DNA of 29,832 nt, from contig JAEUSG010000385.1 of NCBI GenBank assembly GCA_016788315.1, forward strand, positions 1-29,832, written 5' to 3'. Shown here piece after piece: positions 1,598 through 23,221 of this stretch. Origin of the DNA: Fibrobacterota bacterium (GTDB taxonomy: Bacteria; Fibrobacterota; OXYB2-FULL-49-7; JAEUSG01). Made by a program: the position numbers and the translations under genes. The notes under the pieces were generated by a model. The model was not told where the DNA came from. It saw only the letters and a program-made list of their open reading frames with translations, and did not search any database. Every line of letters begins with the position of its first letter. Position 1 is the first letter of the stretch.

Positions 1598-2779
1598 TTA
1601 CTTCGTTCCCTCAAGAACAAGTGTCAGCTTTACTTCCTTACCCTTCCTTATTACCGAAAGAACAACATCATCGCCAGGAAGAAACTGATTGAATATTTCA
1701 GAAATTGAAACCTGATCTGTAATTTCGCTGTTATTTGCTTTTATGATAACGTCTCCTACCTCAAGACCCGCGCGCTCTCCAGGGCTTTTCTTTTCTATGG
1801 AATTGATAATAACCCCGCGTGTAGATTTAAGTCCAAGGCTTGCCGCAATATAAGGAGTAAGATTCTGTATAGATATTCCTGTGTAAAAAGATCTGATCTT
1901 TCCATATTGAAGAATCTCTTTTAGTGTCTTCATGGCACGGCTTGCAGGAATTGCAAATCCAAGACCTATATTTCCCTGCCCGCTTGGCGAAATGATAAAG
2001 GTATTGATTCCGATAAGCTCTCCTAAGCAATTAATGAGTGCTCCCCCGCTGTTGCCCGGATTTATTGCTGCATCGGTCTGGATCATATTCCTGTACTGGA
2101 TTCCGCTCTCTCGAGTGAATTCTCTTCCATACGCGCTGATAACACCTGTTGTGACCGTAGGTCTGTTGTCTTTTATAAGTGCGCCGAAAGGATTTCCTAT
2201 TGCAACAGCCCATTCACCAATGTAAAGAGAATCGTTTGGAACTATCTTTATTGCAGGAAGTCCATTTTCTTCGATCTTGATAATTGCGAGATCCGTATAT
2301 TCATCAGCGCCCATAAGTTTTGCTTTGTACTGTCTGCCATCTGCCAAATGAACTTCGATATCAGAAGCATTTTCAACTACATGAAAGTTTGTTACTATGT
2401 GACCTTTTTCTGAAAGAATAACACCGGATCCCATAGAACGGTATTCGTTAACTGTTGGAGGAAAAAACTGTCTGAAAAATGGGTCGTCAAAAAACTGGTT
2501 GTTTACAATTTTTCTTTGTGTAACACCTATGAAAACCACAGACATTGATGCCTTATTTATCGCCTTAACCATGCTATTATTACGGCGGATATCTGACGAT
2601 TCGCTGAAACCGAAGTCTACTTGCTTATCAAGTTTACCATCTTTTTCATCTTGAGAAGCGTACGCACTTTTATCGGATTGCGACGACATTGTTTCACGTT
2701 TATCAAACAGGTTGAGCGTGCTTACAAAGTATCCGGCAGCAAATGCTGCGACTACAAATAAAAGTGTTCTGATTTTCAT
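1598..2779 (-). CDS. HtrA/DegP (Do) family periplasmic serine endopeptidase with a C-terminal PDZ domain.
   Basis: Trypsin-like catalytic motifs are present: TNFHVV (His), DLAIIKI (Asp) and GNSGGALIN (Ser). There is an N-terminal TM/signal segment and a C-terminal PDZ-like region. The start overlaps the bactofilin stop as TAATG. Confidence 0.85.
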   Translation of the reverse strand: MKIRTLLFVVAAFAAGYFVSTLNLFDKRETMSSQSDKSAYASQDEKDGKLDKQVDFGFSESSDIRRNNSMVKAINKASMSVVFIGVTQRKIVNNQFFDDPFFRQFFPPTVNEYRSMGSGVILSEKGHIVTNFHVVENASDIEVHLADGRQYKAKLMGADEYTDLAIIKIEENGLPAIKIVPNDSLYIGEWAVAIGNPFGALIKDNRPTVTTGVISAYGREFTRESGIQYRNMIQTDAAINPGNSGGALINCLGELIGINTFIISPSGQGNIGLGFAIPASRAMKTLKEILQYGKIRSFYTGISIQNLTPYIAASLGLKSTRGVIINSIEKKSPGERAGLEVGDVIIKANNSEITDQVSISEIFNQFLPGDDVVLSVIRKGKEVKLTLVLEGTK

Positions 2780-3108
2780 TACTCTTTAACCATGCTGCAG
2801 TTTCCTTTAAAAACTGCACCCTCATTAAGAATGAGATCTTTTGTATGAATATCGCCTGTAACCTGTGCGCTTTCGTCAAGCTCTATTTTTTCTTTTGCAG
2901 AGAGTTTTCCGGATACACGACCAGCTATTTTTGCATTGATTACTTCTACGTCTGCGTCGAGATGACCCTCTTTTTCAAGAATGAGATCCCCGTCAACAAC
3001 CACCCGCCCCTTTAATGTTCCCTCAACTTTGATGTTATGGTTTGTTGTAAGAACTCCGTCAAAAACGGTTCCTGCTCCTATGACTGTTCCCAGTATTTTA
3101 CTCTGCAT
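2779..3108 (-). CDS. Bactofilin (CcmA-like polymer-forming cytoskeletal protein).
   Basis: The 109-aa product has the beta-helical bactofilin repeat pattern (VxGxVxxxG...) typical of DUF583 bactofilins. It lies 2 nt downstream of parB. Confidence 0.75.
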   Translation of the reverse strand: MQSKILGTVIGAGTVFDGVLTTNHNIKVEGTLKGRVVVDGDLILEKEGHLDADVEVINAKIAGRVSGKLSAKEKIELDESAQVTGDIHTKDLILNEGAVFKGNCSMVKE

Positions 3109-3110
3109 AA

Positions 3111-4040
3111 TTAATCCTCAACTTTTTCCGGCGAAACAAAAAAGTCAGTTATTCTGTTAAGATCCGCCGTATCGGTATAATGGATAACAAGTTTGCCTTT
3201 GTCTTTATTACTGTTTTGTATTTCTATTTTTGTTCCGAACAGTTTTGTAAGTCTGTCTATAAGCTCCATCATGTCAGGATCAATATCTATGCTCTCTTTT
3301 TTCTTATCGGAGGGAGCCTTTGATTCTGAAACAAGTTTTTCAACCTGACGCACATTGAGATCTTCTGTTATTATTTTGTTAAGAAGCTTTGTCTGTGCTG
3401 TTTCATCGCCGGAAGCAAGGAGCGCTCTGGCATGACCCGAAGAAATTTTCTTTTCGCGTAAAGCTGTTTTTACATCGTCCGGCAGCTTTAAAAGGCGTAA
3501 AGTATTTGAAACAAATGAACGGCTCTTTCCTGTGTCTTCTGCAAGTTTTTCGTGAGTATAGTTATACTGAGCAACAAGCTCCTGATATCCGAGCGCTATT
3601 TCATAATCGTTGAGATCGCTGCGCATCTGGTTTTCAACCAATGCCAGAATCTGCATTTCTCTGTCTGAAACCTTATCGCGGATTACTGCAGGAATATCCT
3701 GCATGTTGAGAGCGCGGACCGCACGGAGTCTGCGTTCACCTGAAACAAGTTCGTAGCGTCCTTTTGATTTCCTGACAATTACTGGCTCAAGAACACCATG
3801 TTTAGCGATAGAATCTTTAAGTTCCTTAAGATCTTCTTCGTTGAACTCTTCGCGAGGCTGATAGGGATTGGCTTCAATCTCTGAAACGGGAAGGGTGAAG
3901 TATCCGCCGGTTTCGCGTGAAACTGTCTGCGACTGCGGTGGGAGAGGGCTCCGCTCCGTTTCGTGCATTTCTACCGCTTCTTCGGAGATAAGGGCTTTAA
4001 GCCCCCTGTGTAGCGCTAATCTCTTCTTTTTGTCCGTCAT
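3111..4040 (-). CDS. parB: Chromosome partitioning protein ParB/Spo0J.
   Basis: The N-terminus has the KKKRLALHRGLKALIS arginine-patch-like motif. A ParB-box/HTH region is present (GYQELVAQYNYTHEKLAEDTGKSRSFVSNTLRLLKLP). Its start overlaps the parA 3' end. Confidence 0.9.
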   Translation of the reverse strand: MTDKKKRLALHRGLKALISEEAVEMHETERSPLPPQSQTVSRETGGYFTLPVSEIEANPYQPREEFNEEDLKELKDSIAKHGVLEPVIVRKSKGRYELVSGERRLRAVRALNMQDIPAVIRDKVSDREMQILALVENQMRSDLNDYEIALGYQELVAQYNYTHEKLAEDTGKSRSFVSNTLRLLKLPDDVKTALREKKISSGHARALLASGDETAQTKLLNKIITEDLNVRQVEKLVSESKAPSDKKKESIDIDPDMMELIDRLTKLFGTKIEIQNSNKDKGKLVIHYTDTADLNRITDFFVSPEKVED

Positions 4041-4836
4041 CTGTTGCTGTCCTGTTTCTGTTTATGATTTCTTCGGCAAGCTGGAAATAGTCCTCTGCGC
4101 CCGATGAGACAATATCATAGGCAAGTATGGGTTCGCCCATGCTTGGAGCTTCCGAAAGTTTTACGTTACGTCGAACCGGTGTTGTGAAAACCTTTTCTTT
4201 GAAATAGTCGCGCACATCTTGAGCCACCTGTTTTGACAGGTTAAGACGCGCATCGTACATTGTCAATAAAGCCCCTTCAATCTGGAGCTGACTGTTAACT
4301 GTTTTCTGAACCGTTCTTACAGTTGAAAGAAGTTCTGCCAACCCCTCAAGAGCGAAAAACTCGCACTGAATTGGAATAAGAACAGAATCTGCAGCAGCGA
4401 GAGCATTAAGCGTCAGCAGGGAGAGGGAGGGGGGACAGTCGATTATTATGAAATCAAATCTGTTTTTTATCTTCTCCAAAGCCTGTTTCAGCTTATACTC
4501 TCGGGCGATCATTTTAAAAAGCTCATACTCAGCGCTGACAAGGTCATTGTTTGAAGGTATGATGTTTATATATTCGTTGACATTTGTATAAGAAGGTTTA
4601 ACGATGATTTGGTTGATTGTATCTTCGTCAAGTTCTTCTGTCAGAATAAAGTCATACACAGACTTTTCAACAGCCCGTTTATTAAGACCCATGCCGGTAG
4701 TTGCGTTTCCCTGAGAATCCATATCGATCAGGAGAGTGCGCTGCTCCAGCACAGAAAGTGAGGCTGCAAGATTTACGGATGTAGTTGTTTTTCCTACTCC
4801 GCCCTTTTGATTTACAACGGCAATTACTTTTCCCAT
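3997..4836 (-). CDS. parA: Chromosome partitioning ATPase ParA/Soj.
   Basis: The deviant Walker A motif KGGVGKTTTSVNLA is present, and the length and architecture are ParA-like. Confidence 0.9.
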   Translation of the reverse strand: MGKVIAVVNQKGGVGKTTTSVNLAASLSVLEQRTLLIDMDSQGNATTGMGLNKRAVEKSVYDFILTEELDEDTINQIIVKPSYTNVNEYINIIPSNNDLVSAEYELFKMIAREYKLKQALEKIKNRFDFIIIDCPPSLSLLTLNALAAADSVLIPIQCEFFALEGLAELLSTVRTVQKTVNSQLQIEGALLTMYDARLNLSKQVAQDVRDYFKEKVFTTPVRRNVKLSEAPSMGEPILAYDIVSSGAEDYFQLAEEIINRNRTATDDGQKEEISATQGA

Positions 4837-4873: not shown

Positions 4874-5458
4874 TCAAGAAATAATAAAAGAGGAGAGTGT
4901 TCTTTTCTGACCATTATCCAAGTTATAAACATAGTTATCCACATTTTTAACTTTTACTTTATGTTTTTTTTCTATTTCTTCTATCTCATTATTTAACAAT
5001 GTGTTAAACGTTATAACCTGACCCTCTTTTTTGAGTAATGATAAAGCGCTTTCAACAAATTGAACGTTTTCCTTAAAAGCCCGGGAAATTACGATATCTG
5101 CGAACTTTGAGAACTCGCCCATCTCTTTCTCAACCCTAACATTATGGACCTTAAGATTCTTTATTCCGCACTTACGGCAGACATGGTCAAGAAAGATTGT
5201 TCTTTTCTCTCTAGATTCAAATGCGTGAAATTGGCAGTCAGGTTTAGCAATAGAAAGCGGTATAACAGGAAATCCGTTTCCGCTGCCGATATCTGCTACA
5301 ATAGATTTTCCTGATATTTTAGAGGCGGCGGCAAGTGAATCCTGCAAGTGGCGCTCTTTGAGAAATGGGATATCGTTTCGGGAAACAAGGTTAACCCTGC
5401 TATTCCATTTTATGATCTCTTCGATATATACTTCAAATAAGGATTCAGCCTCTGCCAT
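4874..5458 (-). CDS. rsmG: 16S rRNA (guanine527-N7)-methyltransferase RsmG (GidB).
   Basis: The product shows GidB family similarity, including a SAM-binding GSGNGFP motif. It lies in the conserved gidA-gidB-parA-parB order. Confidence 0.85.
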
Positions 5459-7298
5459 ATTTCACCATTATCATTAGTACCTGAATATCAGCAGGGGAGA
5501 TACCAGAAATTCTAGATGCCTGACCTAGTGTTGCAGGACGAATTTTTGTTAGTTTCTGCCTTGCTTCAAGAGAGAGATTGTGAACTGTGTTGTAATCTAT
5601 TTCAACCGGTATTTTAGCATTTTCCTGTTTTTCAAAATCTTCAGCCAATGCAATTTCTTTAAGAAGATAACCCTCATATTTTGTGAGGATCTCCATCCGC
5701 ATCCATTCCTCTTCAGAATAGGAAAACTCCTTTCCCAAAATTGGACGAAGGTCCTGATTTGTAATATCAGGTCTTTTTAATAGTGCAAAAGCCTTCACGC
5801 TCTCTTTGAGCTCTGAAAATCCTCTTTCCGCTAATAGAGGGTTTATCTTATCCATTGAAACCTTCTTATTCTTCAGACGCTCAACACCGGCATATATTCT
5901 CTCAATCTTTGCTGTTTGCTTTTCATAGAACCCTTTATCTATTAACCCAAGGTCATGACCTTTTTTCAGGAGCCTTTCATCAGCATTATCCTGCCTTAAT
6001 AAGAGCCTGAATTCTGCTCTGGAGGTAAACATTCTATATGGCTCTTCGGTCCCTTTTGTAACCAGGTCATCTATAAGTACACCGATATATGCCTCTGACC
6101 TTTTTAGTACTAACGGCTCCTTACCTAGTATTTTCAAACAGCAATTTATAGCAGCCATCAAACCCTGAGCAGCAGCCTCCTCATAACCGGAAGTACCATT
6201 TATCTGTCCGGCAAAATATAGGGAGGGAATAATCTTGGATTCAAGAGTTGCATTTAACTGAGTAGGGGGGAAGTAGTCATATTCAATAGCATACGCAGGG
6301 ACTGATATTTCACAGTTTTCAAGACCTGGAATTGTGCGGAGAAGTTTTTGCTGAAAATCTGCCGGGAAGCAGTTTGAAAAACCGTTAAGATAAATATCGG
6401 GTAGATTGTATCCTTCAGGCTCTATGAACAGCTGGTGAGACTCTTTATCAGCAAAATTTATAAGCTTTGTCTCAATTGATGGACAGTATCTAGGACCTGT
6501 AGATTTTATGATCCCGGAAGCCATAGGGGAGAGGGCAAAGTTTTCTCTAATGAGTTTATGAGTCTCTTCCGTAGTTCTGGTGATGTAGCAGGGGAGCTGT
6601 TTTCTGTTAATCTCTTCAGTTCTATAAGAGAAAGGAGATGGAGGAAAGTCCCCCTGCTGTTCTGAAAGTTTTGAACAATCTATAGAACTTTGTTTAATTC
6701 TCGCCGGAGTACCTGTTTTAAGCCTGGCAGTTCTAACTCCCTTTGAAACAATACTTTCTGTAAGTCCTGTACTGTTTTTTTCACCTATTCTACCCGCTGA
6801 AATCTGTTCATTACCAATGTGGATAAGTCCGTTCAAAAAAGTGCCGCAACAGAGAATAACCCCTTTTGCGCTGTATTCTGAGCCTTTTTCTGTTTTTACC
6901 CCTGTGCATAACCCGCTCTTTTCATATATCAAAGAATTTACAGAATCTTCAATTATTTCAATACCAGAAAGAGAAGAGGCATACTTTGAGGCCTCTATCA
7001 TATATTCATCTTTATCTATTTGAGCCCTCGGACCCCACACTGCAGGACCCTTACTTTTATTAAGCATTCTAAACTGAATACCTGTTTTATCTGTAAGAAT
7101 TGCCATAATTCCGCCAAGAGCATCTATTTCACGAACCATATGCCCTTTTGCCAGACCACCAATAGCAGGATTACAGGACATCTTAGAAATTGCACTTTTA
7201 TTATGAGTAATTAGTAGTCCGGAGAGAGAAAACTTTGAAACTATGGTAACCGCCTCTAAAGCTGCATGACCACCGCCTACTATAATGACATCAACCAT
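5445..7298 (-). CDS. mnmG: tRNA uridine-5-carboxymethylaminomethyl modification enzyme MnmG (GidA).
   Basis: The N-terminal FAD-binding motif [15 protein letters not shown] is present. The 617-aa product has GidA-family similarity throughout. Confidence 0.9.
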
Positions 7299-7309
7299 TT
7301 ACCGCCCAT

Positions 7310-7325
7310 TGTTTCACGTGAAACA
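7310..7325. promoter_or_regulatory. parS site (ParB-binding centromere). It is a perfect 16/16 match to the consensus TGTTTCACGTGAAACA.
   Basis: The sequence is tgtttcacgtgaaaca, a palindrome lying 12 nt upstream of the mnmG start codon. Confidence 0.8.
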
Positions 7326-7644
7326 TTCTATGTTTATGATCCTCTGTTATTTATCTGAAAAATACATTTTTTTGATATCTGTTATCGAGTGCTTAATTAT
7401 TGTTTTATCTGGCTTCGAGAGCCTCAGCCAGTTTTTTTCTTTTTGTCGGGCACTGAGCCTGTCGAAGTGCCGTTTTCCCAATATATACATCTGTTATCTC
7501 TAAGAAATCCTCTGGCTTCGACAAGCTCAGCCATCGGAGTAGTTATATTCTTTTTTACACTTTCTAGCACTTAAGGTCTCAAAGGGCCTGTTTCCTTATG
7601 CATATGCTGGCTTCGAGAGCCTCAGCCAACGGAAGAATTAAAAA

Positions 7645-7668
7645 GATCCATCTGTTATTTTTGTAAAA
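7645..7668 (+). repeat. 24-mer iteron-like motif, copy 1 (gatccatctgttatttttgtaaaa).
   Basis: This is a direct read. Related copies lie at 7754-7777, 7897-7920, 8038-8061, 8193-8216 and 8323-8346, with a degenerate copy at 7338-7362. Confidence 0.7.
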
Positions 7669-7692
7669 GATTGTTTTCTTCTCTCCCGTGCC

Positions 7693-7736
7693 CTGAGCGT
7701 AGCCGAAGGGCAATTTCTGGCTTCGGCTACGCTCAG
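7693..7736. repeat. Perfect 16-bp inverted repeat (stem-loop), built from two opposite-orientation copies of the 15-bp element.
   Basis: ctgagcgtagccgaag at 7693-7708 and cttcggctacgctcag at 7721-7736 are exact reverse complements, separated by a 12-nt spacer. Confidence 0.7.
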
Positions 7737-7753
7737 CCAGCGGGCATATTAAA

Positions 7754-7777
7754 GATCCATCTATTATTTCTGTAAAA
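7754..7777 (+). repeat. 24-mer motif, copy 2 (gatccatctattatttctgtaaaa).
   Basis: It matches copy 1 at 22 of 24 positions. Confidence 0.7.
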
Positions 7778-7896
7778 ACTTGTCTTTCTTTCGGGCCCTG
7801 AGGCTCTCGAAGAGCCAAATCCTCATTTTTTAGGATAGGTTTTAGTATCCCAAAATTTTTTATGCCTATTCTAGGGCTTCTTATGAGTTCAAAAAA

Positions 7897-7920
7897 GATC
7901 CCTCTGTTATTTTTGTAAAA
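7897..7920 (+). repeat. 24-mer motif, copy 3 (gatccctctgttatttttgtaaaa).
   Basis: It matches copy 1 at 23 of 24 positions. It is followed by a conserved tail, tattgcgtttttagcgtaatttcagc, shared with copy 6. Confidence 0.7.
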
Positions 7921-8037
7921 TATTGCGTTTTTAGCGTAATTTCAGCGTTTTATTATTTTAATATTTCTTCTTGTTCTTTTATTGATTTTCATTATTCCTT
8001 GCTGGCTTCGAGAACCTCAGCCAGCGGACAACATAAA

Positions 8038-8061
8038 TATCCATCTGTTATTCCTGTAAAA
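8038..8061 (+). repeat. 24-mer motif, copy 4 (tatccatctgttattcctgtaaaa).
   Basis: It matches copy 1 at 21 of 24 positions. Confidence 0.65.
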
Positions 8062-8192
8062 ACATGTCTTTCTCCCGGGCCCTGAGGTTCTCGAAGGGCC
8101 ATTTTCTGTTGGCTGAGCGTAGCCGAAACCAGTATTACTGGAAAAGATCTATTTGCTGGCTTCGAGAGCCTCAGACAGCTAAGAAGTAAAAA

Positions 8193-8216
8193 GATCCATC
8201 TGTTAATTTTGTAATA
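8193..8216 (+). repeat. 24-mer motif, copy 5 (gatccatctgttaattttgtaata).
   Basis: It matches copy 1 at 21 of 24 positions. Confidence 0.65.
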
Positions 8217-8322
8217 ATCAAAATTTGTCTTTCTTTAACTTTTATGAGCTCATTTTTCAAGATAGGTTTTGGTATCCCAAAACTTTTTAAGGCCATTCTA
8301 GGGCCTCTAATGAGGTCAAAAA

Positions 8323-8346
8323 GATCCATCTGTTATTTTTGTAAAA
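8323..8346 (+). repeat. 24-mer motif, copy 6 (gatccatctgttatttttgtaaaa).
   Basis: It is identical to copy 1. It is followed by the tail tattgcgtttttagcttaatttcagc, then parS site 2. Confidence 0.7.
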
Positions 8347-8389
8347 TATTGCGTTTTTAGCTTAATTTCAGCACTTTTTATTATCAATT

Positions 8390-8405
8390 TGTTTCACGTG
8401 AAACT
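8390..8405. promoter_or_regulatory. parS site 2, a 15/16 match (tgtttcacgtgaaact).
   Basis: It shares an identical 16-bp core (ttgtttcacgtgaaac) with site 1, which lies 1080 bp away. It sits between the repeat array and the DnaA-box cluster. Confidence 0.75.
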
Positions 8406-8479
8406 AAGCTTTGAACATCCACTGATTTAAGATCTTTATTTGTATTCAGTATGTATAAACTAAAAACATAAATAGAAAA

Positions 8480-8634
8480 GCATGTTAAAAATGTTGATAA
8501 GTACATAAATGTTGATAAATCAATATCTTGCAATATCTAAATATTGTTGATAACTTTGATTATAAATGTTTATATCTTTTTGATAAAGATTGGTTTATAA
8601 ACATTGTGGATAAGTTCAATAGTTATAAACAAGA
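8480..8634. promoter_or_regulatory. Putative oriC core: a DnaA-box cluster plus an AT-rich unwinding region.
   Basis: Five co-oriented DnaA-box-like 9-mers are present: TGTTGATAA at 8492-8500, 8510-8518 and 8545-8553; TTTTGATAA at 8578-8586; and the perfect E. coli-type TGTGGATAA at 8605-8613. They are interspersed with very AT-rich tracts (ttataaatgtttatatcttttt) and lie immediately beside dnaA. Confidence 0.55.
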
Positions 8635-9936
8635 TTATTGGTCGATTATCAACTTTGTAATGTTGAAAACATCATTACTTACTGTCTGATCTTTTTCTAT
8701 CAATTTTTCAATAGTTTGACATCCATGAATAATAGTACTGTGATCTTTCATAAATATCTTACCAATACTTTTTAATGTTGAATTAGTCATTTTCTTAGAA
8801 AGGTACATAGCCATCTGCCGAGGAATTACATTCTCTTTTTCGCGGCTTCCCTTAATAATCTTTTCTTTGGATGTCTTATAATATTGTGCAACTTTATCTA
8901 CTACCTCTTCCACGTATACCTTCTTCATACCGGAATCATTTTTAAAACTCAATATTTCTACAGCTTTTGTATAATCGACATCAACATTATACATAGAAGA
9001 ATATGCCAGAATTTTAATCAGGTATCCTTCCATTTCCCTAATATTACTTGAAGCATTCCTTGCAATGTACTCAATAACATCTTCAGATATATTCAACTGA
9101 TTTTTTGTAGCCTTCTTATGAAGTATTGCTACTTTGGTTTCAAAGTTTGGCGGTTGAATATCAACGGTTAACCCAGACTGAAATCTTGAAACAAGTCTAT
9201 CCTCAAGGCCATCAAGATCTTTTGGGATTTTATCACTTGTAATTACAATCTGTTTCTTGGAAAGAAAAAGGTCATTAAAAATGTGAAAAAAGACCTCTTG
9301 AGTTCCCTGTTTCCCCGAAAGGAATTGAATATCATCCATTAACAGAAGATCACAGTTTTTATAAAGAATACTGAATTCGTCGCTTTTTTTCTGTTCTATG
9401 AACTTTATGTATTCATCAACAAATTGAACAGAGCTGGTATAAACGACATTAGCCTTTTGATTTGAGGCTAAAACATGATTTCCTATAGCCTGCAAGAGAT
9501 GTGTTTTACCTAAACCGCTCTTTCCATATATAAAGAGGGGATTAAATTTGGTCGCGCCGGGTGTTCCTGCAACTGCAAAAGCAGCAGAATGGGCAAATTC
9601 ATTGTTTTTTCCTACAATAAAGCTGTCAAAATTGTAGTCTTTGTTGAGATTTGTTTTAAGCCTATTGTTTTTAAGTGTGTCAGCTATATTGAGATCAGAC
9701 TCAAATTTTACTACCAGGCTCTTTCCGGAGAGCTTTGCGACTGTTTCACATATGACATCGCTGAACTTATCTTCTAGGAAATGTGAATGAATTTCTCCTT
9801 TTGAGGTTAAAAGGACTATCTCAGAATTACTGATATCCTTAACTCTTAAAGGTTCAATCCAGGTTTTGTAGCTTTCTGCGGGAATCTGGCTGCTTATTTC
9901 AATAAGGCAGTTATTCCAAAAAGATTGTATATCCAT
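8635..9936 (-). CDS. dnaA: Chromosomal replication initiator DnaA.
   Basis: AAA+ Walker A (GKSGLGKTHLLQAIGN) and the C-terminal DnaA DNA-binding domain are present. The likely true start is the ATG at 9934-9936 (MDIQSFWNNC...), which has AGGAGA about 13 nt upstream. The ORF-track N-terminal extension to 10041 overlaps rpmH and is unlikely to be real. Confidence 0.9.
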   Translation of the reverse strand: MDIQSFWNNCLIEISSQIPAESYKTWIEPLRVKDISNSEIVLLTSKGEIHSHFLEDKFSDVICETVAKLSGKSLVVKFESDLNIADTLKNNRLKTNLNKDYNFDSFIVGKNNEFAHSAAFAVAGTPGATKFNPLFIYGKSGLGKTHLLQAIGNHVLASNQKANVVYTSSVQFVDEYIKFIEQKKSDEFSILYKNCDLLLMDDIQFLSGKQGTQEVFFHIFNDLFLSKKQIVITSDKIPKDLDGLEDRLVSRFQSGLTVDIQPPNFETKVAILHKKATKNQLNISEDVIEYIARNASSNIREMEGYLIKILAYSSMYNVDVDYTKAVEILSFKNDSGMKKVYVEEVVDKVAQYYKTSKEKIIKGSREKENVIPRQMAMYLSKKMTNSTLKSIGKIFMKDHSTIIHGCQTIEKLIEKDQTVSNDVFNITKLIIDQ

Positions 9937-10025
9937 AAGTTTAGTTTTATCTCCTAGGTTGAAAATAATTATTTTAGCAAACTCTCTAAGTACATATAAA
10001 AGAAGAAAAAGAAAGGGATTATTAA

Positions 10026-10175
10026 ATGCGTCAGCAGACACTCAACAGAACATCCAACAAGAAGCGGACAACAAAACACGGTTTCCGTAAGAGAATGAAA
10101 ACAAAGAACGGCAGAAAAGTTCTTGCTAACAGACGTAAAAAGGGACGTAAGAAGTTAACAGTTTCTGACGAATAA
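10026..10175 (+). CDS. rpmH: 50S ribosomal protein L34.
   Basis: I translated this by eye. The 49-aa product is [49 protein letters not shown], which matches the L34 family (KRTxxHGFRxRMxTKxGRxVLxxRRxKGRKxL). It is absent from the ORF track because it is under 60 aa. Confidence 0.85.
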
Positions 10176-10187
10176 TTCTTTAAAATT

Positions 10188-10481
10188 TTGAAGCCGACAT
10201 TTCTCGGGAAAAAATTTAGGGGAGAGCTCTTTGATTTTATTATCAGGATTGACAAACAAAAGTCGGTCCTTCAGCTGTTCTTTTCAATATCAAAGAAACA
10301 TTTTAATGCCGTAAAAAGGAACACCATTAAGCGAAGGATAAAAGAGTTTTACAGAACACAATATCCTTCGCTTACAGGTGAACTTCATTATTTTATTAGA
10401 AAGCCTTTTTCTCTTTCAAACAAAGAGATTCTTCGAAACGCAATGAATAAGTCATTAGAAAAGATCATAGAGATTAAATGA
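10188..10481 (+). CDS. rnpA: Ribonuclease P protein component RnpA.
   Basis: The RnpA signature AVKRNTIKRRIKE is present. It sits directly downstream of rpmH as in most bacteria. The start appears to be TTG and its exact position is uncertain. Confidence 0.7.
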   Translation: MKPTFLGKKFRGELFDFIIRIDKQKSVLQLFFSISKKHFNAVKRNTIKRRIKEFYRTQYPSLTGELHYFIRKPFSLSNKEILRNAMNKSLEKIIEIK

Positions 10482-10687
10482 GAAAAGTTCTTATTCTTCT
10501 ATTGAAATTTTACAAAATGGCAATTTCGCCATTCATCGGCAGGGCTTGCATATACGAACCGACATGCTCTGTTTACGCGATGGAGGCAATAAAAAAACAT
10601 GGTCCATTCAAAGGGTTATTGATGTCCGGCTACAGAATATTACGCTGCAATCCGTTCAGCAGAGGTGGTTTTGACCCGGTTGTTTAG
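10478..10687 (+). CDS. yidD: Membrane protein insertion efficiency factor YidD.
   Basis: A YidD/haemolytic-domain motif is present (SPFIGRACIYEPTCSVYAMEAIKKHGPFKG...CNPFSRGGFDPV). The start overlaps the rnpA stop as ATGA. Confidence 0.8.
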   Translation: MRKVLILLLKFYKMAISPFIGRACIYEPTCSVYAMEAIKKHGPFKGLLMSGYRILRCNPFSRGGFDPVV

Positions 10688-10723
10688 TTGTTTGTTAAGT
10701 TAATTATGCAGGAGTATTTATAA

Positions 10724-12508
10724 ATGTTTAATAAAAATTTCATAATAGCCTTTGCTCTGATTTTCGCCTCATTTGTTTTCTTCAACGGCGATTTCTGGAA
10801 TTATAAAATTCTTGGCAAAGAGAAGCCTGTACCGGCTTCCGCTGCTCCTGCTGCTGAAAAGTCTGTAAAAACACACACATCAGCTCCGGCGGAAATAAAA
10901 GAGACGACTGAGAACAAGTTAGCTCCTGTTGATTCTACCGTTCTATCTGTAGATTCATTGAAACAATTATCAAAAACAATTATCGTCAGCAATGGTCTTT
11001 ACACGGCAAGAATATCAACATATGGAGCTATTGCTACCGCCTGGTCTATTCCGGAGTATAAGGATTTTAAGGGCAAGACTTACAACCTCGTTTCAGATAC
11101 TGCTCTGGGTATTTTCAATCTTGAGATTGAAGGCGTCGATTTTGATAAAACTCTTTTTACAACAGATGCCCCTGATTCTCAATACATAACAACAGAAACA
11201 AGCATCTCATTTAAAACGGTCACGCTGGAAGGGAAAACTGTTGAGAAAGTATTTACATTCAGACCTAAAGCATATGATATAACAGTAAAACTTAGCAGTA
11301 CAGATAATATTAAAGGGAAATATCAGTTTGGATGGAAGGGTGGAATCAGAGAGAGTGAAAAAGATGTTGACACCAAACTAGCAGATCAATCTCTCACCTT
11401 TTACCTAGGCGGGGAAGAGGATGATGTTGACAGACCGGTTGAAAATGACGATACTGCAAAAGATGTAGAAGGGTTGCTTAAATGGGCATCTTTAAGATCA
11501 AAATATTTCAGTGGAACTTTTGTCCCAGATTCTGTTGGAGATTTTACAGTATATACGAGAAAGATTGCAAAAACTGAAGAGTCAGGGAATCCTTTAAATT
11601 TTTCATTAGTATATGAGGGCAGACTGGAACAGGGCAGTGCTCTTTATAAAGTAATTTTAATTCCTAGCAGACATTCAATTCTTACGTCATATAATATTCA
11701 GTTAGAAAAAATATTGTTTAAAGGGTATGCAGTATTCTTTAAGGCAGACATCTGGTTTCCAAAACTCTGCGGTCTTCTTTTAACTCTTCTAAATTATTTC
11801 TATGGATTAATTCCAAATTATGGAATTGCAATTCTCCTCCTTACTTTGCTTACGAAAATAGTTACGCTTCCGTTGACGATCAAAAGTACAAGATCGATGG
11901 CCCGAATGAAGCTGATGGCTCCGAAAATTAAGGTCATACAGGAAAAGCATAAAGGCGATCCGATGGCTCAGCAGCAGGCCATGATGAAGATGTACAAGGA
12001 TGAGGGGATCAGTCCACTTGGGGGAGCGGGTGGCTGTCTACCAATGATCCTTCAAATGCCTATTTTCATCGCATTGTTTGTTGCACTTCGAAAGGCGATA
12101 GAGCTTCGCGGCGCTGATTTTGCTTTTTGGATACATGACCTTTCAGCACCTGAGGTCCTTGTAGCTCTGCCATTCAGCATACCATTTTTCGGGGCTCATC
12201 TTTCACTGCTTAACATAATTATGGCTGTCAGTATGTTCTTTCAGAGTAAGCAGACAATGACCGGAAACGATCCGAACCAGAAGATGATGGTTTATTTCAT
12301 GCCTGTAATGATGTTCTTTATGTTCAATAACATGCCGGCAGGACTTCTCCTCTATTGGTCTTTAAGTAATATTTTGGGTATTGCTCAGAATTTTTTCATT
12401 AAATTCGATCCCGAAGAATTGAAAAAAGATACTGTTAAAAAGAAGAAAAGTCTTTGGGGCAAAAAGCCATCCTACAATGAAATTCTCAAAAGGATGGGTA
12501 AGAAATAA
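10724..12508 (+). CDS. yidC: Membrane protein insertase YidC.
   Basis: An N-terminal TM segment and a large periplasmic domain are present. The C-terminal YidC/Oxa1 core has conserved motifs (LLTKIVTLPLTIKSTRSMARMKLMAPKIKVIQEKHKGDP...MYKDEGISPLGG). An AGGAGT Shine-Dalgarno sequence lies upstream. Confidence 0.9.
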   Translation: MFNKNFIIAFALIFASFVFFNGDFWNYKILGKEKPVPASAAPAAEKSVKTHTSAPAEIKETTENKLAPVDSTVLSVDSLKQLSKTIIVSNGLYTARISTYGAIATAWSIPEYKDFKGKTYNLVSDTALGIFNLEIEGVDFDKTLFTTDAPDSQYITTETSISFKTVTLEGKTVEKVFTFRPKAYDITVKLSSTDNIKGKYQFGWKGGIRESEKDVDTKLADQSLTFYLGGEEDDVDRPVENDDTAKDVEGLLKWASLRSKYFSGTFVPDSVGDFTVYTRKIAKTEESGNPLNFSLVYEGRLEQGSALYKVILIPSRHSILTSYNIQLEKILFKGYAVFFKADIWFPKLCGLLLTLLNYFYGLIPNYGIAILLLTLLTKIVTLPLTIKSTRSMARMKLMAPKIKVIQEKHKGDPMAQQQAMMKMYKDEGISPLGGAGGCLPMILQMPIFIALFVALRKAIELRGADFAFWIHDLSAPEVLVALPFSIPFFGAHLSLLNIIMAVSMFFQSKQTMTGNDPNQKMMVYFMPVMMFFMFNNMPAGLLLYWSLSNILGIAQNFFIKFDPEELKKDTVKKKKSLWGKKPSYNEILKRMGKK

Positions 12509-12664: not shown

Positions 12665-15600
12665 TTGAAAAAGTTAGGATTTCTTCTATTTTTTGCCGTT
12701 TTCTGCTATTCAGCAGATTCTACGCACGTATTCTGGAATAAATGTGTAACTAACGGCTATTCAGTTTCATCCAATCCAGGTCCAAATCTGCCTTCCGTTT
12801 CTGTGAAACATGAAGGAATGGTAGCAACAGGCTCATATGATGTTTCGGGGAACTTCGTTAATACAGAATTTAGTCTGGGTTCAGGCCATTATGATAACAG
12901 AGGTAAAAGTTCATTTGTCTGGTTTAAAGATCTCAACCATTTACAGGGAACAGTAACTACTGCAAAACTCAGAGGAGAATATAAAGACGGCTTTTCAGAT
13001 ACAGCATTATGCAGCAATGGCCCCATCTCTCTTCGGGTTGGTATTGTTGATTTTTCACAGAACCTGAATATGATGGGTGGTGAAAGCGGAGTGCCGGAAA
13101 ATGCGGTATGGCAGGATTATGATAATCGCCTGCAGTACGATATGTCCTATTCAAATGGTTTTACAGGACTAATGGCAGAAGACAGTGTAAACATCTCAGC
13201 GTTATCCGGACGGAGCGGCAGATTTATCCGCAGCGTTCTTGATAAACAGTTTTTTGAAATTGATGTTACAAAACAGATCAATTGGATTCTTTCACACACC
13301 GGTTCAAATAAGGGGGGATTCAGCGGTCAATATGCAATTGTATTGCTTTCACCGGTAGGTAAAGGTAGCACTGGCAGGGTAACTCTATACAGTACCGAAG
13401 ATGGCATTTTAGGACCATCTGAAGAGGGGAGTGATTCGGCGTGGACCTCTGATGGAAACACAATCCATCTAGTTGCATCAGGAAATCTCATTCCAGCTGC
13501 CCCGGATACCTTACCCGGGTTCATTTTTGACGTTTGGAACGATGCTGATTCAGCAGCAGTTACTGTAGGTTTAAACAATTTCAAAAAGACAGTAGATTCT
13601 ATCTTTGTTTACAGAGATAGTATATTAATTCATCAACAAAAAAATGAATTCTACCGCATATGGGATGTAAACACCTCTATTTACAAAAATGCTTTTTACA
13701 CTCTTGCCATAAAATATACTGACGCATCAACAGATACATTTTTCAAATATTATAGGGCATATATACCATCCTTTAACGGGTGGTTTAGAAATGACATTCG
13801 CAGAATAGTTATTGATTGGGGATTTTCAGGAGCAAGAACAGATAGTTATGAATTATTCAGAGACGGGGTTAAACTAGGATCTTTTCCAGATTCTGTTCGT
13901 TCATTTACTGATAACGGAGCGGATCCATATCAGGATCACAGATATAAAATGGTCTTTCATTTTGTAAACAATGGGAGAACGGATTCAATTTTTTACAACT
14001 ATCAGGCTGCCATGGCACCGGAACCGGAACTTTGGTGCGGAAACACCTCTCTTCTTCAGACAATGATGTCGGGTAAAGGGGTTGTATATAAACAGAGATA
14101 TAGCACACACCATCGAAATGTAACATCAGTTTCTCTTCCATTTACCATTCCATCCTTTGAGGGAGGAATTTACATAACAGGAAACATAGATTCTATCGGT
14201 TTTGATACTTTGGTTGCTATCGCAGCATACGATACCTGCAGTCATCTTCCCATTTATAAATCTGGACAGGACAATATTGTTTTTGCAGCACTCGATGATA
14301 TAAGCTGGCTTCGCGGTCCTACAATGTGGACCTGGTTTAATCATGCAAGTAAACTTCCATTTGTCAACTGGAATAATGTTCACAAACCAGTAAAGTTTTA
14401 TACGATTTATAGAGATGGAGTTTATGCAGGAACTCCATCGATAAATGATATGCAGTATGCGGATACAACGGCTGATATTTATACAGATCATAATTATCAG
14501 ATGATCATAACATATCAGGACTTTTCTACAGACACATTGAATGCATTATACTCAAGACAGACTCCTCCACAGCCCCAGCCATATTGCGGATCTCCATCTG
14601 TTGCCGGAAATGTTATTTCCACCAAGGGACTGCTATGCCGAATCGGTGGGGATTCACTGTTTCGCCAGGTAACAAATCCAGGGGTACCATTCCCTGCTCC
14701 GAAATCTCCAATGCATACATTGGTTGTGGGTAAAGTTGATTCCATTACGGATACGCTAGTAATTCTCGGGAAAGGGGATAGCTGCGGTTCGCTCTTTTTA
14801 TCAAACGGTAAAGCGGTTGCTGCAAAGTTAAATGAATATAATTACATCCGTGGAGTACAATTCTGGGCTTACTATGATAACTGGCCGAAAAAGGTTAGAG
14901 TTGACTGGACTGGGATAGGTAAATCTGTTAACTACTATGAAATACTCAGAAATTCGGTTAGAGTTGCAACATTTCCAGGCGTTAATGGAACAGGATGGAT
15001 TGACACAGCAGTAAGCCCATATGCGAATTACACGTACAGATTGCGCGTCTTTTTTATGGATTCGACAGCAGATAGCGCTGATGCAGATTATAAGGCAGTT
15101 GCGATTCCTCCTCCTGCTCCATTCTGCGGAACACGGACAGAAGCGCAGAATAGTGTCAATTCAAGAGGGATAACCTGTATTTCAAACCATGATTCACTTT
15201 TGCAGAATGTTTCAATTGCCGGACCTGTATTTCCTGCTCCGAAATCTCCTTCAAATTATTTGATACCTGGAAAAATAGGAACAGCTTCAGACACCTTTGT
15301 AATCCTTGGAAGTGGTGATTCATGCGGTAAGCTTCATTTTGCAAAAGATAGCAAACAGGCCGTAGCAAGGCTTAATGAATACAGCTATATCAGAGGGCCG
15401 ACATTGAATGTATGGTATCATGATGGGATGCAGGTTGTAAAGATTCAGTGGAATGGGATAGGAGGATCTGTTGATTATTTTGAACTTCTGCGCGATGGAC
15501 AGACAATAGTCAGCAATTATAACGGAACATGGAATTATGATGACTATTCAGCGGATGCATTTACAAATCACACATATCTTTTGCGCATATTTAAGAGCGG

Positions 15601-18600
15601 AGTTGCCATAGATTCCTTGACCGCTGGCTATATGGCTAAAAACCCTTATCAGAATCCTGTTGTGTGGTGCGGTTCACCAGGAATTCTGCAGGATACACTA
15701 TCAAGACATGGATCATCGCTTCGTGTACATTGGGATACGTTGCCCATACCTGTTTCAAGAGTGGATAATCCATTTTCAAACAGTAAATATCCTGGTGCAG
15801 TGCTGATGCTGGGTGAGTGGTTTGATAAGGAAAAGAATGTTACAGTAACAGATACAATGGTGGCAATGGGAATTAATGGAAAATGCGCAAGTTTGATAAT
15901 GAGTAAAACAAGTGCAGCATATTTTTGGAGGCTTAAAGACTGCTATATGCTTCAACCTCCCTATTTCTCAGCCTGGTGGCAGCAGGATTCCGGTTTTATA
16001 AGAGTTGAATGGGGAAATTTCAAGCGGCCGGTTGAAGGGTATGTTCTTTACAGGGATACAACGAGAATATATAGCGCTACCGGTACAAATGTCTGGCATT
16101 TCTTTGACAGATCCGGAGTAAAAGAAAATAATTATCAGTATAAGATTCTTGTAAACTACCAGGATTCGACCTCTGAATGGTTTTATGCCAACTACAGCAA
16201 TCAGGGAGGAAACACAGGAAAAGAGATGCCGCCGATCTACTGCGGTACAGATGCTATGCTAACGGCTGCTTTAGCAGGAAAAACGGTGCAGTTCATTGTG
16301 CCGTGGGATTCAGCAGCCAGACCTTTTACCAGAAGCAGCAACCCTTTTCTGCTGCAGGGAACTTCAAATGTTTGGGCTCTCTTAGGAAAAGAGGGCAGCA
16401 ATACGTATTCGGATACTTTTCTCGCTTTAGGCAAAATTGGAACGTGTTCGGATCCTCTTTTTTCTAAAGATATGAAGTCGGTTGTCTTTGCAAGAATTCA
16501 GGAATATCCATTCATCCGTGGACCTAGACTGATGTCATGGTTTTTCTACGACAGCAACTGTGTCTCACTTAACTGGGGCGGATTTCAGGGTACAGTAACT
16601 ACCGCTACACTTTTCAGGGATAATCAGTTTGTTAAATCATTTCCTGGAAGTTCTACATTCTATAATGATTATATGACTGATCCGTCGATAAAACATCTCT
16701 ATGTTCTTATAGTAAAGACAGGAACATCAACAGACACACTATACTCTAATTACAGTAAAGATGGGGACGGCGGCGGAAGTGGAGGAGGCCGTGATTTTAA
16801 TTTTGACGGTAAATGGGGATATGAAGGCTCATATACCTTTAACTTGATGAAAATGACAGGCAACAAGGCAGATTCCGGTAAAAGCGGATATGTTTACAGA
16901 TGGGGTATAAAGAAAGAATCCGTTATAATTGATTCTGTAACAAGACTCCTTCAGACGCCGGTAACGTTTAATGTTTCGTTCAGAAAAATTACTGATGCCT
17001 CTTTTATAAACCTGTTATCATTTTCTGTCAAAAAGGCAGACAGCTGTTATGGATACAATGTGAAGGATACAGTTTTCGGCATAGGAATATATCAGAAAAG
17101 AGTTATTGTTGTAGCTGGGGCAGAAATAGACACTATTTATAATTACTTTACATCAGGAGTAGCAGTTCCGGTCAGCTTAAACAATGTCATATCAATAAAC
17201 CTTTCAAAAATTGCGTCAGTTAATCTTGGAACAAAGAGTACGGCTTTTATAAGCAATTATTCAGAGGATGGAAAATTGCTTCCTGCACCATCCGGGAACA
17301 TGCTGACCTTCAGCCACACTGTGCCGAATGTTAATACTATTTACAAAACAATAAGCTATATAGCAGATGGTCTCCCGTTCGGTCTTATCCTTATGGCTAG
17401 CGGAACTCTTGAAGGGGGTCAGAAAACGCTTTCAGCAGGTCCTGCTAAAGAGGATGGATATGTAACCTTTGACGGGACAGTCAGAATGGAAATTGAAGGA
17501 GAAGGCATACCAAAGAGCGCTTCGGATATGCAGCAATCCGGCAGACAGGATAAAATTCTTTTCTCTTCACTGAGGATATATTCCGGTTCTATGATGGACA
17601 CAGTAAAGCTTCCTCTTGACTCAGGAAAGGTAACATTCAATTCCGGACCCGATCATGCAGGCAAGCGTATCAGTATAAAGGGTATTGATACACTCCTTGG
17701 TATTACAGTTGATGCGCCAGCCGGTCGTGTATTCCATATTGGTGCCTCTGATAAGAGTGTTGTTGGCATAACTAACGGAACGGAGAGTCGATACTATACA
17801 GTTGCTGCAGCGGTTATGGCAGGAGAAAAAACAATTAAACTGCCTGCGGCTGAATATAAGGGAATGCCCATTGCGCTTTATCAAATGGCGGGCATCACAA
17901 TAACAGGTGAAATACAGGGAGAGAAAAAGACTTTAATAGATGCTGATGGAAATGATGCCGGTATATGGCTCAAGGAGGTTGCATCAATAGGAATCAGAGG
18001 AGTATCAGTTCGTAAAGGGAATGTTTCGCTTTCTGCGAATACAGTAAGCGGTATTACATTTGCACAGTGCAGAGTAACAGGCTCGCTTAACGGAGTAGTA
18101 ATATTTGCTCCTGAAGGAGATTCTTTTTCAACACTCAGCCCTAAAACAAAAAATTGCACAATAGAAAACTGCGTTGCTGACAGTATTGCCGGATTTGCCT
18201 TTCTTATAGATAGACCTGTTGATTGCCGTATTGCTAATAATACGGTTGTATCGGCCGTATACGGAGCATATATGGGCCGTGGTGGCAATAGTCGAAAGGT
18301 TTCATTGCCTCTTACCGGTAATACAGCGTCAAATAATATATTCCGAAATTGCAAAGCCGGTTTTGTTCAAGGACTTGATAACAGCATGGACAACATAGGT
18401 TTTACTTATAACGCAAATATATTCCAAAGCTGTGACAGCGGAGCCTTTTCATCAAGTTATACTACTGATCCAGTTTTCCGCACAGTTAGACAGAGTGCTC
18501 CTGCCGGGTGCATTGAAATTGCTGCAAATGAAAATTCAATATCTGCATCTTTCCCGTATATACCCGTTATTGGCAGTTCAGTTCATGATAAAGGTCTTAG

Positions 18601-23078: not shown

Positions 23079-23221
23079 AAAAACGCTCCTTGAAAGAATT
23101 GCCGGAAAAATCGTACAATACAACTGTTATATGATTTTAAGTTAAACTAAAAGAACTTAAAATTCCTGTAAAATACGAACCAAAACATGTAAGAAAAGTA
23201 CAAAATGGTTTTATCTATTAA

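Follow-up and report, generated by a model that had tools for sequence, protein, structure and literature searches.

We analysed a contig of 29,832 nt (JAEUSG010000385.1, assembly GCA_016788315.1) from an uncultured member of the Fibrobacterota, referred to at its full length as the window, in which two parS centromere sites enclose a non-coding repeat array between dnaA and mnmG. In our reading, to which we assign a probability of about 0.8, both are genuine chromosomal centromere sites of a known kind, and they descend from a single ancestral site that was duplicated around accumulated repeat DNA. The order along the contig is dnaA, a cluster of DnaA boxes, parS, the 1064-bp non-coding array, parS, and the genes mnmG-rsmG-parA-parB-bactofilin-htrA. 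An initial annotation made from the sequence alone had proposed canonical parS sites beside oriC and parAB, and the genes identified by Pfam, the DnaA boxes, and the retention of parS in relatives all agree with this. The reading would locate the centromere and the probable oriC of this Fibrobacterota lineage.

Sequence and spacing of the two parS sites

Sites were scored against the parS consensus tGTTNCACGTGAAACa, a 16-bp palindrome, with a threshold of at most two mismatches for a good site. The scan covered the window, which is the entire contig (29.8 kb), and up to 21 kb of flanking DNA in relatives. The sites and the DNA between them are as follows.

7310-7325, no strand assigned, parS copy 1 (mnmG-proximal), TGTTTCACGTGAAACA, 16/16 match to the consensus
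8390-8405, no strand assigned, parS copy 2 (oriC/dnaA-proximal), TGTTTCACGTGAAACT, 15/16 match with a perfect 14-nt core
7326-8389, plus strand, non-coding repeat array, the repeat-rich 1064 bp between the parS copies

Copy 1 was recovered with no mismatches and copy 2 with one, at its outermost base, as expected from the perfect and 15/16 matches annotated initially. No other position in the 29.8-kb contig passed the threshold, and the claim that about 30 kb contain no further good site therefore stands. A repeat search also bore out the identical 16-mer reported for both sites, with TTGTTTCACGTGAAAC present at 7309-7324 and 8389-8404, 1080 bp apart from start to start. When up to three mismatches were allowed, the window contained five matches against 0.15 expected, and none of 100 shuffles reached five; the three additional sites, each with three mismatches, start at 2690, 3909, and 19564. 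The window contig and the scanned flanks of the relatives each carry one or two good sites. Copy 2 lies 229 nt after the dnaA stop. Only 11 nt lie between copy 1 and the start codon of mnmG (ATG at 7298, minus strand), in keeping with its annotated place in the mnmG 5' leader near the start codon.

Conservation of parS position among relatives

Relatives were found through DnaA and MnmG searches. All 12 related loci that cover the orthologous position have parS there (L001, L002, L003, L081, L083, L084/L085, L086, L087, L088, L143, L144, and L145). Seven relatives have contigs that reach from dnaA to mnmG, and in each of them a single parS, perfect or nearly so, is found in this slot.

L002: DnaA 76% identical to the window; parS 221 nt after the dnaA stop; the only canonical in-frame mnmG start is a GTG inside parS
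L003: DnaA 60%; parS 231 nt after the dnaA stop and 5 nt before the mnmG start
L086: DnaA 63%; parS 243 nt after the dnaA stop and 9 nt before the mnmG start
L088: DnaA 58%; parS 190 nt after the dnaA stop and 15 nt before the mnmG start
L143: partial DnaA, no identity computed; parS 221 nt after the dnaA stop and 19 nt before the mnmG start
L144: DnaA 62%; parS 198 nt after the dnaA stop and 3 nt before the mnmG start
L145: DnaA 58%; parS 251 nt after the dnaA stop and 0 nt before the mnmG start

In these seven loci and in L087, parS follows the dnaA stop at a distance of 190-251 nt, and it is downstream of dnaA in L001 and L081 too. The mnmG-proximal position, 0-19 nt before the start codon, was found in L003, L086, L087, L088, L143, L144, L145, and L084/L085, and the distances to the mnmG start across loci are 0, 3, 5, 8, 9, 11, 11, 15, and 19 nt. 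The spacing between parS and the mnmG start is conserved more tightly than the spacing between parS and dnaA. In L004, a metagenome-assembled genome (MAG) of the Chitinispirillia, mnmG and dnaA are 9 kb apart, and yet a perfect parS is located ~60 nt upstream of mnmG. Further parS sites away from mnmG are present in L088 (at 4461) and L004 (at 2682).

In three relatives parS overlaps or touches the mnmG start: a GTG lies at the parS centre in L002 (11629-11700), the ATG follows parS directly in L145 (9985-10003), and 3 nt intervene in L144 (1947-1968). This contact implies leaderless or very short-leader mRNAs that would begin in or before the ParB site. Separately, the Chitinispirillia MAGs L004 (1128-1143 and 2682-2697) and L005 (222-237 and 1077-1092) each have two perfect parS sites 0.85-1.55 kb apart, which flank protein-coding open reading frames (ORFs), not an array.

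Proposed duplication history

Copy 2 is found at the ancestral distance from dnaA (229 nt) and copy 1 at the ancestral distance from mnmG (11 nt); therefore, both flanks appear to be ancestral and the intervening 1064 bp derived. In a neighbor-joining tree of DnaA, the window forms a group with L081 and L001, whose DnaA proteins are 85% and 82% identical to its own. What comes after the dnaA-side parS in these two loci is not mnmG but non-coding DNA with repeats, where the contigs break. L083 (DnaA 96% identical, from another sample) has dnaA, DnaA boxes, AGTTTCACGTGAAACC, a 592-bp array of the same elements, ACTTTCACTTGAAACA, 11 nt, and the mnmG ATG, in a noisy, frameshift-ridden assembly. 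In L084/L085, whose MnmG is 75% identical to that of the window (above the 66% of L002), an array ends at a perfect parS 11 nt before mnmG. The L081/L001 contigs cover the dnaA side and the L084/L085 contigs the mnmG side, and they are not linked as the same genomes. The L084 (1-610) and L085 (1-314) contigs start inside a different tandem array, in which three or more units of 190-197 bp are present, with hairpins like GGTAGTCTCGGTACAATTTCAGGTAAACCTGAAATCACTCGACTACC.

Only one parS is present in the sister lineage (L002/L082) and in all outgroups except L087, whose closest relatives, L003 and L086, have one each. By parsimony, one parS would be ancestral and would have been duplicated at least two times, the L087 event being independent of that in the window clade. 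In L087 (3934-4029), a distant relative, the two parS sites are TGTTTCATGTGAAACA and a perfect copy at a spacing of 80 bp, and the 64 bp that separate them are unrelated DNA. A tandem duplication of a larger block comprising parS and its flank was also considered; flank similarity is absent in the window and in L087, and after divergence this scenario is neither supported nor excluded.

Among the lineages of the window clade, the array sequence between the parS copies is unalignable while the copies are perfect or near-perfect, which argues for purifying selection on the sites themselves. The initial annotation considered it unusual that the two sites delimit the array. The bracketing is real, but it is better explained by the duplication history than by a designed bracket: the sites would delimit the array because one parS copy stayed beside oriC and the other in the mnmG leader.

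Composition of the repeat array

The array contains nine YMTCTGTTAT cores in the same orientation on the plus strand (7341, 7376, 7488, 7649, 7758, 7901, 8042, 8197, and 8327). Six of the nine lie within a 29-41-nt element, AAAAAGATCCATCTGTTATTTTTGTAAAA, here called the B element, and are spaced 109-155 bp apart. GATC is present in five of the six long copies of this element, which is AT-rich and was found only in the window and in L083. The array also contains ~11 GC-rich hairpin modules, in the form CTGGCTTCGAGAGCCTCAGCCAG and in the inverted or partner form GCCCTGAGGCTCTCGAAGGGC.

7409-7431, 7512-7534, 7607-7629, 7717-7739, 8002-8024, and 8156-8178, plus strand, hairpin modules of the CTGGCTTCGAGAGCCTCAGCCAG type
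7448-7471, 7690-7711, 7795-7816, 8079-8100, and 8110-8132, hairpin partners in the inverted or partner form

Inverted hairpin pairs fold strongly as single strands when compared to shuffled sequences (z of -4 to -6). The longest ORF in 7299-8634 is 79 aa, and the translations are low-complexity peptides of the 'LSLSK/ERSRS' type, typical of translated palindromes. No tRNA was found in the array by ARAGORN. An Rfam search of 7000-10800 in E-value mode returned only a spurious snoRNA match (E 0.96), and a search in gathering mode of 16 loci with the hairpin or related arrays returned only a 5S rRNA. The segment GGCTTCGAGAGCC has a T-loop-like look and was considered as a tRNA remnant, but ARAGORN recognised none.

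Tandem Repeats Finder detected no regular tandem array in 7200-8700; the array is a mosaic and not a fixed-period satellite. Comparison of the window with L083 showed that the array ends are homologous while the number of interior units differs (nine vs four B cores), a combination which fits in-place amplification better than the arrival of one discrete element. The array sequences of the nearest relatives are largely unrelated to that of the window.

The hairpin has a much wider distribution than the B element. An exact 22-mer, CTGGCTTCGAGARCCTCAGCCA, is present in 54 stretches (loci L089-L142) of unrelated metagenome contigs from the Joint Genome Institute, with GC contents from 32% to 68%. 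These contigs often contain several copies and local tandem variants, mostly outside long ORFs. Similarity to other genomes spans only 24-40 nt and consists of a conserved 13-nt loop (TTCGAG-NN-CCTCA) on a variable, compensating stem. No hairpin copy was found in the remaining 28.5 kb of the contig, a BLAST search of the array unit against plasmids gave no match, and a literature search for the loop sequence found no paper. The array is best described as a mosaic resembling the repetitive extragenic palindrome (REP) and bacterial interspersed mosaic element (BIME) families, in which a widespread small palindrome and a local element appear to have been amplified in place.

On the plus strand, the B element also includes TATTTTTG, a sequence that looks like a -7 promoter box of the Bacteroidetes type and is followed by a CU-rich stretch, a hairpin, and a T-run. 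It is possible that the B-element array represents small transcription units or protein-binding sites, for which it is a candidate.

Alternative explanations for the paired sites

The 1064 bp could instead be an integrated or transposed element that targets parS, with the 16-17-nt copies being a target-site duplication or attL/attR cores. The copies form an exact direct repeat that does not extend beyond parS (GTTTCACGTGAAACAA), and the adjacent flanks are dissimilar; however, selection on two functional parS sites would likewise conserve only the 16-mer. L087 provides a second, independent case, with two parS sites around 64 bp of unrelated DNA where L003 and L086 have one, and the presence of the array hairpins in many unrelated genomes is as expected of mobile or REP-like DNA. 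Against this, the similarity to those genomes is confined to the short hairpin, the arrays of sister lineages are made of different repeats, and the homologous array ends and differing B core numbers of the window and L083 fit amplification in place. The array encodes neither a transposase nor a recombinase, ORFs in 7299-8634 do not exceed 79 aa, and the neighbours are dnaA and mnmG, although an enzyme encoded elsewhere could act in trans. The array ends, ATTGATAATAAAAAG... and ...CATAAACATAGAAT, are not mutual inverted repeats, and the repeat search gave no terminal pair. Given the lack of a transposase, a recombinase, and terminal inverted repeats, a discrete mobile element with a parS target-site duplication is the less likely reading, and we consider it improbable. 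We also think it unlikely that the parS palindrome at the oriC/mnmG junction is a recurrent target of insertion or duplication and that the array is a maintained part of the centromere, such as a non-coding platform for ParB clamps that lies between origin and operon. This idea is kept open because there are two independent duplications of parS alone, both copies stayed perfect across lineages despite a complete turnover of their arrays, and arrays are present in every sampled member of the clade. If it is true, the fast-evolving array bracketed by parS would not be junk but the small-scale bacterial counterpart of a regional centromere built from repeats.

An explanation to which we give still less weight is that the palindrome serves mainly as an operator or leader of the mnmG operon, as a repressor site, a CACGTG site of the E-box type, or a hairpin in the mRNA where translation starts, with the parS match being secondary and the dnaA-side copy a by-product. 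The tight spacing to the mnmG start (0-19 nt), the persistence of parS near mnmG in L004, where mnmG is not beside dnaA, and the GTG at the palindrome centre that is the only canonical in-frame mnmG start of L002 would all suit such a role. But all 16 positions fit the universal parS consensus, including those outside CACGTG, and the dnaA-side copy is near-perfect in the window, L081, and L001 without an adjacent start codon. The additional sites of L088 and L004 also lie away from mnmG, and the hairpin formed by parS is weak (-3.5 kcal/mol, z -1.6). The two roles are compatible, as ParB itself could be the operator-binding protein. That the second copy is a chance match, or an artefact of mis-joining at a repeat, seems very improbable. 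The source is a metagenome assembly, repeat-rich regions are prone to mis-assembly, and the contigs of relatives do break inside such arrays, yet a 16-nt repeat is too short for a mis-join, no shuffled sequence reached even the observed number of weak matches, and the independent L083 contig, from another sample, has the same order of dnaA, parS, array, (parS), and mnmG.

We therefore favor a pair of genuine centromere sites produced by duplication of one parS. Several points weigh against this. ParB binding at both sites is predicted from sequence, and since the scan was limited to one contig, these two sites may not be the sole or primary ones of the genome. The mnmG-side parS of L083 (ACTTTCACTTGAAACA) is apparently degenerate; if this is not a sequencing error, one copy can decay and the second may be redundant. 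Neither extended flanking homology nor terminal inverted repeats were seen that would indicate how the site was duplicated. In the mechanism proposed below, the regulatory step is the weakest link because ParB of Bacillus subtilis hardly affects parS-adjacent genes (PMC7022226).

Candidate oriC and proposed partition mechanism

The segment between copy 2 and dnaA has the features of a replication origin.

8406-8634, minus strand, candidate oriC core, 229 bp long, AT-rich, with four DnaA boxes in the same orientation

The four DnaA boxes (TTATCMACA; 8492, 8510, 8545, and 8605) are clustered within 122 bp of this segment (8492-8613), compared to 0.87 boxes expected across the whole window. The window scan found no DnaA box in the array or upstream of dnaA, and we no longer consider that oriC might extend into the array as further DnaA-binding DNA. 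GC content is 0.31 in 8001-9000, and the cumulative GC skew reaches its minimum at about 9-10 kb. The DnaA-box cluster and the nearby skew minimum make 8406-8634, which abuts parS copy 2, the probable oriC. This predicted core is homologous to the dnaA-to-parS spacer of L081, L083, and L002 (70-78% identity).

The ParB gene is located ~3 kb from the parS sites. Its product has an N-terminal ParB_N domain with the CTP-binding motif GERRLRA, a helix-turn-helix (HTH) domain, and a C-terminal dimerisation domain. Its best PDB relatives are 4UMK, 6SDK, 1VZ0, and 6T1F (E from 1e-42 to 1e-45), and the closest solved structures are the Helicobacter pylori ParB-parS complex, B. subtilis Spo0J, Thermus Spo0J, and Caulobacter ParB.

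From these data, an ancestral layout can be proposed in which dnaA was followed by ~200-250 bp of AT-rich DNA with DnaA boxes (likely oriC), one parS, and the mnmG start codon. In the window clade this single parS would have been duplicated, and hairpin repeats together with the local 29-41-nt element would have accumulated between the copies and been amplified in place. ParB nucleation, CTP-dependent clamp closure, and sliding are established in ParABS systems (PMC7022226, PMC8494293). By the same biology, ParB dimers would nucleate at both parS sites here, close as CTP-dependent clamps, and slide outwards, so that one partition complex would stretch from oriC across the array and over the 5' end of the mnmG operon. 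ParA would then segregate this complex, and SMC could load on it.

In Pseudomonas aeruginosa, one of the four oriC-proximal parS sites is sufficient (PMC4368675). Because of this precedent, and because the mnmG-side copy of L083 appears degenerate, a single parS is probably enough in this lineage as well.

The genes from mnmG through htrA overlap or are separated by gaps of at most 37 nt according to their ORF coordinates and are therefore likely to form a single operon. ParB bound at the mnmG-proximal parS may damp this operon, which encodes both ParA and ParB, and thus act in autoregulation. An influence of ParB on mnmG-rsmG-parAB expression is plausible because the juxtaposition of parS and the mnmG start is deeply conserved and the operon encodes ParA and ParB. 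Precedents for such an effect are mixed: genes beside parS3 and parS4 of P. aeruginosa are repressed, and in B. subtilis a local effect is absent (PMC7022226, PMC5521831). A consensus scan of the minus strand near 7300-7450 found no sigma-70 promoter for mnmG in or next to parS copy 1, and only weak matches were seen by hand.

Comparison with known systems

The locus shares with the chromosomal ParABS centromeres of B. subtilis, Caulobacter crescentus, P. aeruginosa, and H. pylori the same 16-bp palindrome, an origin-proximal position, and few, clustered sites, and ParA and ParB (with HTH and CTP-binding motif) are likewise encoded in cis. In P. aeruginosa, the four parS sites closest to oriC are clustered, and the ParB complex overlaps oriC (PMC4368675, PMC10419367). 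The arrangement described here differs in that parS is within ~230 bp of dnaA, directly after the DnaA-box cluster, and in that parS lies clade-wide in the translation-start region of mnmG and is doubled around an array.

In having a parS directly upstream of the first gene of an operon, the locus resembles P. aeruginosa parS3 and parS4 (upstream of PA0011 and PA0013) and the autoregulated plasmid ParB/KorB systems, in which ParB-mediated repression beside parS has been described (PMC7022226, PMC5521831). Unlike in those systems, the negative feedback here is purely a prediction, and Spo0J of B. subtilis leaves the expression of parS-adjacent genes unchanged (PMC7022226).

The E. coli REP-IHF-REP mosaics ('RIP/RIB') are clusters of extragenic palindromes of the REP/BIME type. 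The array resembles these in being a non-coding mosaic in which GC-rich imperfect palindromes of 20-25 nt alternate in orientation, with an AT-rich conserved element between them, and in that its palindrome family is also found in intergenic DNA of many other genomes. In contrast to REP/BIME, there is no further copy in the other 28.5 kb of the contig, the conserved part is the loop while the stem is variable, and neither a REP-associated tyrosine transposase (RAYT) gene nor a GTAG-type head is present; membership in this class is thus a candidate assignment.

In E. coli, which is not known to have a ParABS system, oriC adjoins gidA (mnmG). At both loci mnmG/gidA has its 5' end next to the origin and is transcribed away from it, but here dnaA is on the other side of the origin and parS is interposed.

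What sets this clade apart is that oriC, parS, and mnmG are fused very tightly, that the site is duplicated, and that a hairpin array turns over between the copies; no new mechanism is required, and this is not a new kind of system. The locus forms a compact, deeply conserved module, dnaA-oriC-parS-mnmG-rsmG-parAB, with parS placed in the start region of the parAB-containing operon. This arrangement makes ParB autoregulation and the coupling of origin and segregation directly testable in the phylum. The duplicated parS and the expanding array also amount to a natural experiment on the number of parS sites needed and the oriC-parS spacing tolerated.

Gene neighbourhood and additional observations

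The genes around the parS sites were assigned by Pfam.

1598-2779, minus strand, htrA, HtrA-type protease
2779-3108, minus strand, bactofilin
3111-4040, minus strand, parB, canonical chromosomal ParB (ParB_N with GERRLRA, HTH_ParB, ParB_C)
3997-4836, minus strand, parA, Soj-type Walker ATPase (AAA_31, CbiA, ParA)
4874-5458, minus strand, rsmG
5445-7298, minus strand, mnmG (gidA), GIDA 2.6e-149, first gene of mnmG-rsmG-parA-parB-bactofilin-htrA
8635-10041, minus strand, dnaA (Bac_DnaA, DnaA_N, Bac_DnaA_C), the ORF reaching a GTG at 10041
10188-10481, plus strand, rnpA
10724-12508, plus strand, yidC
3909-3924, no strand assigned, weak parS-like site GGTTTCGCGTGAAACT with three mismatches and a 13/14 core, located in the 5' portion of parB, where the minus strand codes for VSRET

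The deposited DnaA (P0001, 100% identical) is 433 aa and would begin at about 9936. Two very large proteins of 2521 aa (12665-20230, plus strand) and 947 aa (20280-23123, minus strand) have a C-terminal Por_Secre_tail domain (type IX secretion sorting) as their only recognisable part, and the remainder of both gave no Pfam match.

The parS-like site inside parB reads AGTTTCACGCGAAACC on the coding strand, encoding VSRE(T). At the same position of parB, L002 (14987-15002, CGTTTCCCGTGAAACA) and L144 (5311-5326, TGTTTCACGTGAAATC) have parS-like sites with two mismatches. The spo0J gene of B. subtilis contains a parS encoding VPRET, which the parB-internal site resembles. It may be a weak third ParB site and is listed as a candidate.

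The gene order dnaA-mnmG-rsmG-parA-parB-(M23 peptidase)-bactofilin-htrA is kept in the clade, including L088, L144, and L145. In Myxococcus xanthus, the bactofilin gene bacM is also directly downstream of parAB, and there it acts in cell shape and not in segregation (PMC5703909).

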